This document shows, in pieces, positions 25,890 through 62,870 of a DNA stretch of 64,000 bases. The notes beneath the pieces were generated by a model. That model searched no databases and was not told the origin of the DNA. It was given only the letters and a program-made list of their open reading frames with translations. Where the stretch lies: assembly GCA_041651015.1 (NCBI GenBank), contig JBAZKA010000003.1:42572-106571 (forward strand). Reading direction: 5' to 3'. Origin of the DNA: Patescibacteria group bacterium (lineage in GTDB: Bacteria; Patescibacteriota; Patescibacteriia; Magasanikbacterales; GWA2-37-8). Positions within the stretch are counted from its first letter, which is position 1. The number at the start of each line of letters is the position of its first letter. Position numbers and translations under genes: made by a program.

Positions 25890-25964
25890 TTAAGTACTAA
25901 ACGCGAGTGCAAAGGCAATCACAACGGGCCCTAATATCAACACCCAATCAATATTTTTTAACAT
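25890..25964 (-). CDS. candidate 24-aa hydrophobic micropeptide (MLKNIDWVLILGPVVIAFALAFST) with consensus SD
   Basis: GGAGG lies 5 nt upstream of the ATG. Its own TTGACA-17-TATGAT promoter is at 25993-26021. Confidence 0.35.
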   Translation of the reverse strand: MLKNIDWVLILGPVVIAFALAFST

Positions 25965-25992
25965 TTTGTCCTCCTTTTGGTTTCTAAAAATT

Positions 25993-26021
25993 ATCATAAT
26001 ATAAAAAGACAGGCGTGTCAA
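25993..26021 (-). promoter_or_regulatory. sigma70-like promoter TTGACA-17-TATGAT for the micropeptide
   Basis: Minus strand: 'TTGACAcgcctgtctttttatatTATGAT'. The -35 sits inside the terminator hairpin at 26010-26032. Confidence 0.45.
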
Positions 26022-37759: not shown

Positions 37760-38827
37760 TTAGTTACCCATCGCCTTCCTCAATTCCGGATCTAAATCGT
37801 CTTCCGCATACTGCTTTGCAATTTTGTCAATAACAATGAATGGCTGCGGACCTTCACAATAAGTGGAAATTTCTGACAACGATACTTCCGCCATTTTTGT
37901 GGGGGATGTTTTTCTTAATTTATTCAATAAATCTTCGCTTACATTATCTTCAGTTAAATATGTAAGTAAACCGTTATTGGCAAGCGCGGCTGCATCACCA
38001 GAGGCAAATAGGCGTTGAAAGATTATGGGTAAGTTATCTGTATCAAAATTATAAATATGAAATACATATGGGGCACAATAGGGGTTGTAAGGATTGTTGT
38101 CGGCGTCGCATTTTTCTTCTTCAAACCAGCCACGCACGGTGGTACTGCCGCTATATATTGGCCCAAAACAATCATCCATTGGGTTACCATGAGTCATTTC
38201 CCAATATTTGTTATCGCCGTTCGTGTTCTTGTCGCTATCTATTACGGGAAACTGCCTAATAGAAACGTAAAGACTGTCCCTGCCAGACATGGCCGATTGG
38301 ATATTTAAATTTATCGGATTATCCACGGTAGCCTTTTTTAGCCCCGATAACACGCTCTCTTGAGATATGAACAATGGATCCCAGCGCAATACAACTTTGC
38401 TAACATTTCCGCCATAAACTTTTATCGGCAATTTATCCAAATCAGACTGATCAATGCCTAAGACGTACGCATTGTCGTAACCGTCCCCCAATTCATTAAC
38501 CCATATTACTTTGATTGACGCATTACCAATATATGAAGAATCTCCGATTTTTTTCCATGTTCCGACAGATTGAAAGGCAGTGCTCGCATCATTTTGTTCA
38601 GGCTCTAATATGCCAGCGTCACTATTGCGAGCATCATACATATTGCTCTGATTCTCTTCAATATTTTCGTCAGCAACGTTGGATGAAGACCGATTAATGT
38701 CCTGTGATTTATTTTTGGCCAACAAAAACCCGAAATAAATCACAACTACTATCACCCCAACAAAAACTACCGCCGCGATAATATGCACGGTCAATAATTT
38801 TTTGTTGTTTTTTAGGATTTCGAACAT
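37760..38827 (-). CDS. hypothetical N-terminally anchored exported protein (355 aa), 32 bp upstream of dnaK
   Basis: TM 'LLTVHIIAAVVFVGVIVVVIYFGFLLA'. Cys-containing, Asn/Asp-rich ectodomain. No motif recognised. Confidence 0.45.
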   Translation of the reverse strand: MFEILKNNKKLLTVHIIAAVVFVGVIVVVIYFGFLLAKNKSQDINRSSSNVADENIEENQSNMYDARNSDAGILEPEQNDASTAFQSVGTWKKIGDSSYIGNASIKVIWVNELGDGYDNAYVLGIDQSDLDKLPIKVYGGNVSKVVLRWDPLFISQESVLSGLKKATVDNPINLNIQSAMSGRDSLYVSIRQFPVIDSDKNTNGDNKYWEMTHGNPMDDCFGPIYSGSTTVRGWFEEEKCDADNNPYNPYCAPYVFHIYNFDTDNLPIIFQRLFASGDAAALANNGLLTYLTEDNVSEDLLNKLRKTSPTKMAEVSLSEISTYCEGPQPFIVIDKIAKQYAEDDLDPELRKAMGN

Positions 38828-38831
38828 ATTT

Positions 38832-39044
38832 TCATTTTTTTAACTCCCACGGAGTATTGCAAACAATTTTGTATAAAATTTTCATTTTTTCTACCGACAA
38901 TTCAACCAACTTTTCCATTTCTTTTCTCGCCTGTGCGCTTTTTACCGAATGGCCGATTTGCGAATATTTTTCTTGCAAACGGCCTTCCGCGGCCAAAGCT
39001 TCACAGACATCATGCAACTTCGGTTTATTTTCGTTTTTGGACAT
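38832..39044 (-). CDS. hypothetical small protein (70 aa)
   Basis: ORF only. 4-nt gap to the downstream gene. Confidence 0.35.
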   Translation of the reverse strand: MSKNENKPKLHDVCEALAAEGRLQEKYSQIGHSVKSAQARKEMEKLVELSVEKMKILYKIVCNTPWELKK

Positions 39045-39061
39045 ATGACTAAAATAAATTA

Positions 39062-39532
39062 TTAAATTTTTTTCTTCATTAACATTCTAAAATCTTCAAA
39101 GCCCCACTTTTTATAAATATCGCGGGCAAAATTTGTATGCATGACATTCAAAGAAACATACTTGACGCGGCGCTGTTTGAAATATTTCATTGAACACAAA
39201 AAGAGCGCTTTGGCAATCCCGTTCTTCCGATACTTTTTTTCAACATACAAACTGCGGATAAATCCTTGGCGTGGCATAACTTTCACTCCGTCCTGTTTGC
39301 CGTCATCAATACGAAACTGGACATATCCGGCCAGCACGCCATCCAAAAGGGCGAGATAAAACAAATCCTTTTTATTATTCATCAATTTCTTTAACGCTTT
39401 TTCATCTCTCAACTTTAGAAAATCATAAAAATACTTTTTAACAAAAACTTTTTGACTACTACTAAAATCATTCTCAAAACCGGCGAGTGTCTTCGCGTCT
39501 TTTTTTGTGGCTTTTATGATTTTTACGATCAT
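39062..39532 (-). CDS. GNAT-family N-acetyltransferase
   Basis: 'QFRIDD...IRSLYVEKKYRKNGIAKALF' (the acetyl-CoA-binding motif A). The start is taken at the ATG MIVKIIKA, not the upstream TTG in the track ORF. Confidence 0.75.
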   Translation of the reverse strand: MIVKIIKATKKDAKTLAGFENDFSSSQKVFVKKYFYDFLKLRDEKALKKLMNNKKDLFYLALLDGVLAGYVQFRIDDGKQDGVKVMPRQGFIRSLYVEKKYRKNGIAKALFLCSMKYFKQRRVKYVSLNVMHTNFARDIYKKWGFEDFRMLMKKKI

Positions 39533-39543
39533 ATTATTATCTC

Positions 39544-39572
39544 TTGACAAAACCGACAATCTGTATTATAAT
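39544..39572 (+). promoter_or_regulatory. perfect-consensus sigma70 promoter TTGACA-17-TATAAT (plus strand, orphan)
   Basis: 'TTGACAaaaccgacaatctgtatTATAAT'. Both neighbouring genes are on the minus strand. Confidence 0.6.
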
Positions 39573-39579
39573 TCAATTA

Positions 39580-39640
39580 ATCACGATGAGAGGACTACCA
39601 AAGGGTTTCGTCCCGAGGGAATGCCTCTTTTTTGTTTTAT
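39580..39640 (+). ncRNA. candidate about 55-60 nt sRNA (or 21-aa micro-ORF MRGLPKGFVPRECLFFVLSFF) driven by the 39544 promoter, ending at hairpin + T-run
   Basis: Predicted TSS about 7 nt after the -10. 'gagggaatgcctc' followed by 'ttttttgtttt' at 39615-39640. Confidence 0.35.
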
Positions 39641-40125
39641 CTTTTTTCTAATTTTGTTTTAAATAACTGGATATTTACAATATACTTGCTGAATTTTCGT
39701 AACAACGAGGAATAACGGAAATTTGGCACCACCACTTTTGATAATTTTTCTTTGTCGTTCAGATATTCCAGCAAGCAATGAAAGTCGCCATCGCCACTCA
39801 CAATGAGAGCCTGTTCATAATTCGGAAACTCAATCATCGTATGCAAAACTAATTCCGCATCAACGTTTCCTTTTATCTGAACTTTATTCCCATATTTTAC
39901 CTCCAGTGTTGGCTTGAACACGCAAATATATCCGGCGTCTTGCAGGGATGTATATAATTGCTGGTTACCTGGAACAAAACCAATAAACAGAAACGCTTTG
40001 CTAATGTGATACTTATCTTCAAGAAAAACTCTAAACCTCTTGAAATCCAGCAACCACCCTTGACTTTTTACACCTAAATTAAGATTTTGACTGTCAATGA
40101 ACGCAAAATTATTTGGCCTCGCCAT
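39637..40125 (-). CDS. NYN/LabA-like (DUF88) nuclease-domain protein
   Basis: 'FAFIDSQNL', 'KGNVDAELVLHTM', and 'IVSGDGDFHCLLEYL'. Confidence 0.7.
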   Translation of the reverse strand: MARPNNFAFIDSQNLNLGVKSQGWLLDFKRFRVFLEDKYHISKAFLFIGFVPGNQQLYTSLQDAGYICVFKPTLEVKYGNKVQIKGNVDAELVLHTMIEFPNYEQALIVSGDGDFHCLLEYLNDKEKLSKVVVPNFRYSSLLRKFSKYIVNIQLFKTKLEKR

Positions 40126-42049: not shown

Positions 42050-42076
42050 TTATCACTCATACGTCTTGAGTGATAA
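42050..42076. promoter_or_regulatory. CIRCE operator (TTATCACTC-N9-GAGTGATAA) upstream of hrcA
   Basis: A perfect 9-9-9 inverted repeat matching the CIRCE consensus TTAGCACTC-N9-GAGTGCTAA at 16 of 18 positions. Lies between the -10 and the hrcA ATG. Confidence 0.75.
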
Positions 42077-42102
42077 TACACCAAACACGTCCACAGTGTC
42101 AA
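42073..42102 (-). promoter_or_regulatory. hrcA promoter TTGACA-18-TATTAT overlapping CIRCE
   Basis: Minus strand: 'TTGACActgtggacgtgtttggtgTATTAT'. Confidence 0.55.
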
Positions 42103-62548: not shown

Positions 62549-62577
62549 TTGACAAAACTCCCAAAATGTGCTATACT
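62549..62577 (+). promoter_or_regulatory. cspA promoter TTGACA-17-(TG)TATACT with about 85-nt 5' UTR
   Basis: 'TTGACAaaactcccaaaatgtgcTATACT'. Extended -10 TG. Confidence 0.65.
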
Positions 62578-62666
62578 GATAATACTAAAAAGTTTGCTTC
62601 CACGTAGAAACTAGTCGAATTTCTGCAGAGGCCTTCTTTGCAGCTTAGTTCACTATATACAACACT

Positions 62667-62870
62667 ATGACCGGAAAAATCGCAAGATTGACGGACAAGG
62701 GTTTCGGCTTTATTACTCCTGATGGAGAAGCCGGCGGAAAGGATATTTTCTTCCATTCCACAGCCCTCGTCGGTGTGACCTTCAACGAATTGCGCGAAGG
62801 TGATGCCGTGTCCTTTGAAACCGAGCAATCGGACAAAGGCCCGCGCGCTATCAACGTGCAACGCGTCTAA
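62667..62870 (+). CDS. cspA: cold-shock protein (CspA family)
   Basis: 'GKIARLTDKGFGFITPDGEAGGKDIFFHSTAL' RNP1/RNP2 motifs. 67 aa. Confidence 0.92.
   Translation: MTGKIARLTDKGFGFITPDGEAGGKDIFFHSTALVGVTFNELREGDAVSFETEQSDKGPRAINVQRV

Follow-up and report, generated by a model that had tools for sequence, protein, structure and literature searches.

The stretch of DNA analysed here, a window of 64,000 nucleotides (nt) from a Patescibacteria group bacterium (assembly GCA_041651015.1, contig JBAZKA010000003.1, positions 42,572 to 106,571 of the forward strand), contains between two minus-strand genes what is very probably a real and conserved gene for a small RNA (sRNA), partnered with the adjoining gene for a LabA-like NYN-domain protein. 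On comparative evidence, the RNA represents a new structured, NYN-associated family, and the two genes together are an autonomous module which behaves as a mobile element in defence-like, toxin-antitoxin-rich neighbourhoods. Both the RNA family and the NYN-RNA module are undescribed within the literature and databases searched. We favour a reading in which the RNA acts as an antitoxin or inhibitor of the NYN protein, a predicted ribonuclease, and in which phages carry decoy copies of the RNA; its chances of being right or wrong appear to us about evenly balanced.

The original prediction for this site was an orphan promoter of perfect consensus driving a short plus-strand transcript, a candidate for an unannotated regulatory RNA. 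This was correct in kind and, as it turned out, too modest, the RNA being neither orphan nor coding.

A conserved RNA gene

The features of the locus, in window coordinates, are as follows.

39544..39549, plus strand: -35 hexamer TTGACA of the sRNA promoter, read from the sequence
39567..39572, plus strand: -10 hexamer TATAAT, within the palindrome ATTATAAT at 39565-39572
39580..39638, plus strand: predicted sRNA of about 55-58 nt, from the A of AUCACGAU to inside the U-tract, matched by the covariance model
39580..39587, plus strand: single-stranded 5' tail AUCACGAU, 8 nt, the family's most conserved element in the alignments
39588..39593, plus strand: 5' arm of helix P1, GAGAGG, pairing with 39624-39629 and doubling as terminator stem
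39594-39597 and 39619-39623, plus strand: conserved asymmetric internal loop, ACUA / GAAUG, flanking P1b
39598..39599, plus strand: P1b, CC, pairing with GG at 39617-39618
39603-39605, 39606-39611 and 39612-39614, plus strand: P2 hairpin, made of GGG, the loop UUUCGU and CCC
39624..39629, plus strand: 3' arm of P1, CCTCTT, pairing with 39588-39593
39630..39638, plus strand: U-tract of the intrinsic terminator, overlapping the NYN stop codon (39637-39639, minus strand)
39637..40125, minus strand: LabA-like NYN-domain gene, 162 amino acids (aa), Pfam PF01936, E = 1e-11
39062-39532, minus strand: GNAT acetyltransferase gene, with an alternative gene-caller start at 39550

The promoter lies in a 104-nt gap flanked by the GNAT and NYN genes. 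As first described, its hexamers are separated by 17 nt and match the consensus at 12 of 12 core positions; no other 12/12 promoter occurs in the window on either strand with spacers of 16-18 nt, and shuffles predict 0.04 (4 of 100 shuffled sequences held one). The TTGAC of the -35 is invariant and identically oriented in 16 homologous loci from different phyla, as are the second and last bases of the -10, A and T (TAnnnT). Among 116 further copies, 66% reach a sigma-70 score of at least 10/12 at the expected position, compared with 0.2% for control positions. TTGACA is the -35 most often seen in metagenome copies, occurring in 67 of the 94 that score at least 9/12. Most copies with a score of 9/12 or more have their conserved A1 6-9 nt beyond the end of the -10, so that the conserved tail begins at or next to the predicted transcription start, which in the window is 39580, the first base of AUCACGAU. 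The promoter is thus, as judged from this conservation, a conserved feature of a conserved gene. The view that it does not serve a minus-strand gene also held, both hexamers being conserved in the plus orientation across the 16 loci. On the minus strand the palindrome ATTATAAT does read TATAAT, but no -35 that could serve the GNAT gene from there matches at more than 3 of 6 positions; nor is the palindrome a conserved minus-strand -10, relatives carrying TGCTATAAT and similar sequences instead. The two other near-consensus promoters of the window precede plausible genes, a cspA-like gene (62549, plus strand) and a 24-codon open reading frame (ORF; 25993, minus strand), and the organism, whose genome was assembled from a metagenome (ENA ERZ27247363, 186-kb contig), therefore seems to use canonical promoters and Shine-Dalgarno sites.

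Folded as a single sequence the RNA is unremarkable (-17.6 kcal/mol, z = -1.34), so that the case for it rests on comparison with relatives. A covariance model (R1) built from 8 sequences matched the window copy with 85.6 bits (E = 1.6e-23) and found no second copy in the 64 kb, even with filters off. Across 84 aligned copies, 97.7% of the cells of a three-helix model are paired and 10 of its 11 pairs show compensatory changes; double-change cells number 127, compared with 31.9 in shuffles, the observed value being reached by none of 500 shuffles, and slid registers all collapse. Compensatory changes affect all six pairs of P1, and both pairs of P1b covary (C-G to A-U or U-A, for example). P2 is 99.6% paired with two covarying pairs, although the pattern by which metagenome and viral RNA samples were drawn itself fixed the tail and P2. 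An additional pair extending P1 (alignment columns 18/54) is C-G in most copies and G-C in three distinct ones, L030 and L066 among them; the window copy has A.G. Conservation extends to unpaired bases, namely the ACUA/GAAUG internal loop, an AAA junction and the P2 loop (consensus UUYYGU); several transcript bases are also invariant in the 16-sequence alignment, and the tail AUCACGAU is kept even by L019, the most divergent member.

Two further comparisons bear on strand and selection. On the plus-strand reading, G-U and U-G cells (46) outnumber A-C and C-A cells (12), which identifies the promoter strand as that of the functional RNA; the strand is also fixed by the orientation of promoter and U-tract, and all phage copies are sense to their flanking genes. 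Secondly, identity at four-fold synonymous sites is down to 29% in the linked NYN genes, which means saturation, but reaches 62% in the RNA, as high as in the protein. The conservation of the RNA, unpaired bases included, thus reflects selection and not recent transfer. The proposed short plus-strand RNA with its own promoter and terminator is in this way supported, by covariation, as a unit conserved in 16 homologous loci.

Termination would be intrinsic, the P1 stem being followed by UUUUUUGUUUU on the transcribed strand. A hairpin followed by a T-run had been anticipated and is present; what relatives conserve, however, is not the 4-bp GAGG/CCTC hairpin then proposed (39615-39627), but the outer helix, 39588-39593/39624-39629, which encloses two inner helices and leads into the T-run at 39630-39638. 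Because this stem is interrupted, a simple terminator scan of the window did not list it. The U-tract is present in promoter-bearing copies and absent from phage-embedded ones. In most loci the RNA begins 51-57 nt beyond the NYN stop codon, and its U-tract hence ends at that codon; read-through antisense to the NYN coding region, as originally envisaged, is accordingly not the designed outcome.

The transcript does contain the predicted 21-codon ORF (ATG at 39586, MRGLPKGFVPRECLFFVLSFF, stop at 39649-39651), but this is not conserved as coding sequence. Of 16 unbiased homologues 6 lack the ATG, of 64 aligned copies that have it 33 meet a stop codon in frame before the RNA ends, and no Shine-Dalgarno site precedes it, though the genome uses AAGGAGG. 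Two structural candidates were also set aside. A possible pseudoknot between tail and loop, ACG(A) with (Y)YGU, is compatible with most copies, but no compensatory change accompanies it, and the tail variants AUCAUC and AUCACC have no compensating change in the P2 loop. A hammerhead-like core noticed by eye (GAUGAG / CGAAAC) has its halves on opposite strands and is matched by no ribozyme model.

No Rfam 15 family overlapped the sRNA at E values up to 10 or reached its gathering score; two weak matches within 39400-39800 fall in the flanking genes on the minus strand, and ten further member loci gave no match at E up to 1. ARAGORN, run on the window, reported only a tRNA-Ser elsewhere. No description of an NYN-associated RNA was found in the full texts searched or by a term search of the 224-motif paper, with subscription journals and unpublished motif collections outside the scope of the search.

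Association with NYN across phyla

Conservation in relatives, which had been proposed as a check, was found in NYN-anchored loci of at least seven phyla, and the label 'orphan' has to be withdrawn: the sRNA is the conserved partner of the adjacent NYN gene. When 17 loci were fetched from GTDB species genomes with the NYN protein as query, the unit of promoter, tail, hairpin and U-tract lay convergent to NYN in 16. On the strand opposite NYN its order is TTGAC(A), about 17 nt, TAnnnT, 6-9 nt, AUCACGAU, a long hairpin with interruptions and the U-tract. It abuts the NYN stop codon in 15 of the 17 loci and lies about 300 nt downstream in L018; NYN occurred without the RNA once (L016, 49% identity). 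On the Patescibacteria side these loci come from Gribaldobacteria, Saccharibacteria, Staskawiczbacteria, Paceibacterota and Uhrbacteria, and beyond it from Omnitrophota, Thermodesulfovibrionia, Gammaproteobacteria, Elusimicrobiales, Rokuibacteriota and Dehalococcoidales.

The association also holds in reverse. Metagenome contigs searched with a pattern describing the RNA only gave at least 120 matches; among the 120 listed, 119 were true copies, and a convergent NYN gene directly followed the RNA in 74 of the 100 listed matches with at least 450 nt of downstream sequence. Neither a conserved element or promoter upstream of NYN nor a second conserved protein gene was found among the loci compared (136 flanking ORFs fell into 112 clusters). 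As flanks and NYN upstream regions are thus unconserved, the conserved unit consists of the NYN ORF and the RNA gene alone, set in many unrelated contexts.

Some of these contexts deserve separate mention. Seven metagenome loci (L128, L141, L153, L169, L175, L178 and L228) carry the module between two large proteins, one with a PLD-type nuclease domain at its N terminus (about 1064 aa; picked as the upstream ORF in six of the seven) and an uncharacterised one of at least 528 aa; this arrangement resembles a restriction or defence system. Tandem RNA genes, about 40 nt apart, occur only in L227 (11467-11622) and L209 (630-793), where tail (AUCACC or AUCAUC) and internal loop of the second copy both diverge, and such copies may represent diversified specificities.

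RNA copies without NYN

About 25% of the listed metagenome RNA copies lack NYN. Loci of this sort are of two kinds. Orphan RNA genes keep promoter and terminator, and several adjoin a remnant of the last NYN codons (L126, L135, L176 and L202); their neighbours, identified by eye from the sequences, are often genes of HicB, RelE/ParE, MazF, AbrB, RelB or MNT type. The second kind is found in phages. About 19 IMG/VR loci carry the RNA, and NYN accompanies it only in L096 and L100 (and in the NYN-anchored L230); roughly 16 copies are RNA-only, with no NYN, promoter or U-tract. These lie in packaging or structural regions, sense to the phage genes and next to those for terminase, portal, head-tail adaptor and ParB-like proteins, and the phage copies keep the tail, internal loop, junction and P2 loop. 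Neither a close NYN homologue nor a copy of the RNA was found in GenBank phages or PLSDB plasmids.

Two related phage contigs, L096 and L080, have the RNA between terminase and portal genes. L096 carries an intact convergent NYN and L080 only a stub of its 3' end, which looks like loss of NYN with retention of the RNA. In another phage group (L022, L051, L054, L061, L075, L085, L125 and L204) a conserved small protein of about 70-90 aa (MKT..AFPA.IK.ISVKSL...), matched by neither Pfam nor PHROG, is encoded ahead of the terminase large subunit, and its start codon lies 2-10 nt beyond the end of the promoter-less RNA; an additional effect of the RNA on the translation of this small gene is conceivable.

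The NYN protein

The 162-aa protein scores 46 bits against PF01936, for which the curated cut-off is 24.2. Residues D11, N87, D89, D112 and D114, together with many lysines and arginines, are invariant among 35 homologues, and an alignment of 71 sequences agrees. Its AlphaFold2 model (predicted local distance difference test, pLDDT, 84) is nearest in Foldseek to the uncharacterised LabA-like structure 2qip (E = 8.9e-8) and to the MARF1 NYN domain (E = 8.8e-5). With fold and catalytic residues D11, D89, D112 and D114 conserved, NYN is predicted to be an endoribonuclease. More than 8000 clusters at 90% identity match it at E <= 1e-10, a lower bound as the cluster search scored the 8000 candidates sharing most words, and 114 representatives of 50%-identity clusters do so at E <= 1e-30. 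The function of bacterial LabA-like NYN proteins was listed as unknown in a 2017 classification of the PIN-like superfamily (PMC5499597).

What the RNA may do

Several observations suggest that the RNA neutralises or controls NYN. Firstly, the RNA is driven by a strong promoter; none is conserved for the nuclease itself, and no protein antitoxin accompanies it. Secondly, the RNA outlives the loss of NYN, and NYN almost never occurs without the RNA. Thirdly, phages carry the RNA alone, in parallel to phage PhiTE, whose pseudo-ToxI is a phage-encoded mimic of an antitoxin RNA deployed as counter-defence to ToxIN (PMC3475682). Retention of the NYN fold and of its catalytic Asp and Asn residues is what an antitoxin would lead one to expect of its target.

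The sequence of events we envisage is the following. The sigma-70 consensus promoter would start transcription at about 39580, and termination at P1 and the ensuing U-tract would place its end exactly where the convergent NYN reading frame stops. Produced in excess, the RNA would most probably bind the NYN protein directly; its 5' tail may lie in the exposed active site and act there as a pseudo-substrate. Pairing with the 3' untranslated region (UTR) of NYN, the exact complement of the RNA, would be unavoidable and could form a second layer of control. Phages with the RNA alone would use it as a decoy which keeps the host NYN inactive. Taken to its full extent, this reading describes an unrecognised class of RNA-protein toxin-antitoxin or abortive-infection module, widespread in Patescibacteria and uncultured phyla of groundwater and sediment, in which NYN is held inactive by a directly bound RNA with its tail as pseudo-substrate and phages place promoter-less decoys within their own transcripts. 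In this complete form we offer it tentatively, as a proposal somewhat more apt to fail than to hold.

A number of points weigh against assigning an antitoxin role. The NYN protein is 57-80% identical across phyla, which is unusual for a toxin and would also fit a housekeeping RNA-protein complex, and co-occurrence and phage carriage would likewise fit an RNA that activates or guides NYN. The architecture, single-copy and convergent with its own promoter, is unlike that of every described type III system. PADLOC called no defence system at the locus and gave only a weak match of NYN to a longer LabA-like model (E = 3.9e-5). All homologues come from uncultured organisms, and the conservation of tail and P2 is judged from the 16 NYN-anchored loci only, because both were fixed in the pattern used for sampling.

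Two alternative roles for a genuine RNA were weighed. In the first, a cis-antisense arrangement of type I character, the sRNA would pair with the 3' UTR of the NYN mRNA and cause RNase III cleavage and decay, or would act by transcriptional interference, as do the Bacillus subtilis pairs txpA/RatA and bsrG/SR4. The convergent geometry, with the RNA gene starting 51-57 nt beyond the NYN stop, is well suited to this. Between stop codon and RNA gene there is moreover no terminator on the NYN strand, on which the hairpin has an A-run before it and no U-run after it, so that any NYN transcript would carry the complement of the RNA. Complementarity of this sort, however, is automatic and places no constraint on sequence, yet fold and unpaired bases are conserved where neutral sites are saturated. 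The P1 sequences of phage and orphan copies differ, leaving only patchy pairing with a host NYN UTR, and small hydrophobic peptides make up most of the known type I toxins (the nuclease RalR being one of the exceptions), whereas the partner here is a nuclease of 162 aa. As cis-antisense pairing cannot explain the conservation of loop, tail and fold across phyla, direct binding is favoured over a purely antisense mechanism, which we consider unlikely.

The second alternative is a functional RNA-protein complex, in which the RNA would serve NYN as cofactor, scaffold, guide or dedicated substrate and phages would redirect or exploit the host protein. Both partners are very highly conserved, many Lys and Arg residues of NYN are invariant, the 5' end of the RNA coincides with the conserved tail, and NYN is rarely found without the RNA, all of which such a complex would accommodate. 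Orphan RNA genes which persist with promoter and terminator after NYN has been lost are more easily understood as antidotes, however, and the mobile-like behaviour of the module in defence-like, toxin-antitoxin-rich neighbourhoods also speaks for a different role. An 8-nt tail that is constant cannot be a programmable guide. In the window, nt 2-12 of the sRNA (39581-39591) are complementary at 10 of 11 positions to 39805-39815 (CTCATTGTGAG versus CTCATCGTGAT, -15.3 kcal/mol), that is, to NYN codons 106-110, which encode the LIVSG stretch next to the catalytic GDGD motif. As a conserved mechanism this fails, the closest relatives using non-complementary synonymous codons, and the match probably arose by chance from the codons used for Ile and Val. 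The idea that the RNA mimics rRNA or tRNA was set aside too, no meaningful match being present in the E. coli rrnA operon. We therefore regard a complex of this kind as an improbable, if serious, competitor.

The remaining explanations fare worse. That the conserved element belongs to the NYN strand, as a stabiliser or terminator in the 3' UTR of the NYN mRNA with an incidental plus-strand promoter, is a thought invited by a hairpin that can form on either strand directly after the NYN stop; it is made very improbable by the 46 to 12 ratio of G-U to A-C cells on the plus reading, by -35 and -10 elements invariant in antisense orientation, by a U-tract on the RNA strand, and by phage copies that are sense to phage genes with no NYN gene present. 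That the promoter arose by chance in AT-rich DNA, or that a micro-protein of 21 aa is translated, is scarcely credible despite the low G+C content (37.5%), the ATG-initiated ORF and a real-looking 24-aa ORF with promoter and Shine-Dalgarno site elsewhere in the window, given that relatives in different phyla share the sequence and the place of the promoter, that the start and frame of the ORF are lost as described above, and that substitutions follow base pairing, not codons.

Comparison with known systems

The favoured reading, an RNA antitoxin or inhibitor of NYN, may be set beside several described arrangements. The Bacillus subtilis pairs txpA/RatA, bsrG/SR4 and bsrE/SR5 are type I systems whose antitoxin RNAs overlap the 3' end of the toxin gene. 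Pairs of this build share with the present locus, where the toxin is putative, a convergent sRNA gene, a strong promoter of its own and complementarity to the 3' UTR of the toxin mRNA. They differ in that their toxins are small membrane peptides, in place of the soluble 162-aa NYN nuclease, and that their RNAs are not known to be conserved, in fold or in sequence, outside close relatives, whereas here fold and unpaired bases are conserved across phyla. A nuclease-type protein countered by a small RNA is likewise found in SymE/SymR, where SymR pairs at the 5' region. The same holds for RalR/RalA (PMC4041452), in which RalA acts in trans over 16 nt. Both of these systems are narrow in distribution, and no comparable conserved pairing with NYN coding sequence was found here.

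The type III systems ToxIN, CptIN and TenpIN (PMC5086642) are closer in kind, combining an endoribonuclease (predicted, in our case) with a small structured RNA and no protein antitoxin. They too are compact, horizontally mobile modules, and phages carry homologues of their RNA without the nuclease. Their toxins, however, have the ToxN/Kid-like fold and not the NYN/PIN-like one, and their RNA takes the form of a tandem-repeat array that precedes the toxin gene in one operon, with a terminator in between, where the present RNA is a single unit of about 55 nt, convergent and with its own promoter. LabA-like NYN proteins (NYN.COG1432, 2qip and the NYN domain of MARF1; PMC5499597) have the same fold and acidic active-site residues; they differ from the present one in that the literature searched reports neither an RNA partner nor a biochemical role for the bacterial members.

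Genomic surroundings

In the window the NYN-RNA module lies inside a cluster ordered hrcA-grpE-hsp20-NYN-GNAT-hyp-hyp-dnaK-dnaJ. The stretch 37760-40125, between hsp20 and dnaK, is low in G+C (37.5% versus about 44%) and holds NYN, the sRNA, the GNAT acetyltransferase and proteins of 70 and 355 aa without Pfam match; it looks like an acquired island within the heat-shock cluster. The hrcA promoter (TTGACA-18-TATTAT, 42050-42102, minus strand) overlaps a CIRCE-like inverted repeat, TTATCACTC-N9-GAGTGATAA, with two mismatches to the consensus and none expected by chance, so the whole minus-strand cluster, NYN included, may be under HrcA control. It is speculation that NYN is co-transcribed with the heat-shock genes while the RNA is made constitutively.

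Two other sites in the window combine a near-consensus promoter with a short gene. At 25900-26021 on the minus strand, an 11/12 promoter (TTGACA-17-TATGAT) and an AAGGAGG ribosome-binding site precede a hydrophobic 24-codon ORF, MLKNIDWVLILGPVVIAFALAFST, followed by a GC-rich hairpin with a T-run; this is a candidate gene for a small membrane protein. At 62549-62870 on the plus strand, an 11/12 promoter (TTGACA-17-TATACT) stands before a cold-shock-protein-like gene (MTGKIARLTDKGFGFITPDGE...) whose 5' UTR of roughly 85-90 nt could hold a regulatory structure of Csp type.

Implications

The RNA family described here is absent from Rfam and comprises well over a hundred copies at the least. Thousands of LabA-like NYN proteins are annotated, and an RNA which travels with one subfamily of them offers a direct handle on their role. 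The system is small, consisting of a 162-aa protein and a 55-nt RNA, and is directly testable in E. coli. Were the antitoxin reading true, RNA-antitoxin systems would extend to a new nuclease fold and a new gene architecture, phage RNA decoys directed against a host nuclease would have their second natural case after pseudo-ToxI, and a system of this type would be placed in the little-studied Candidate Phyla Radiation.

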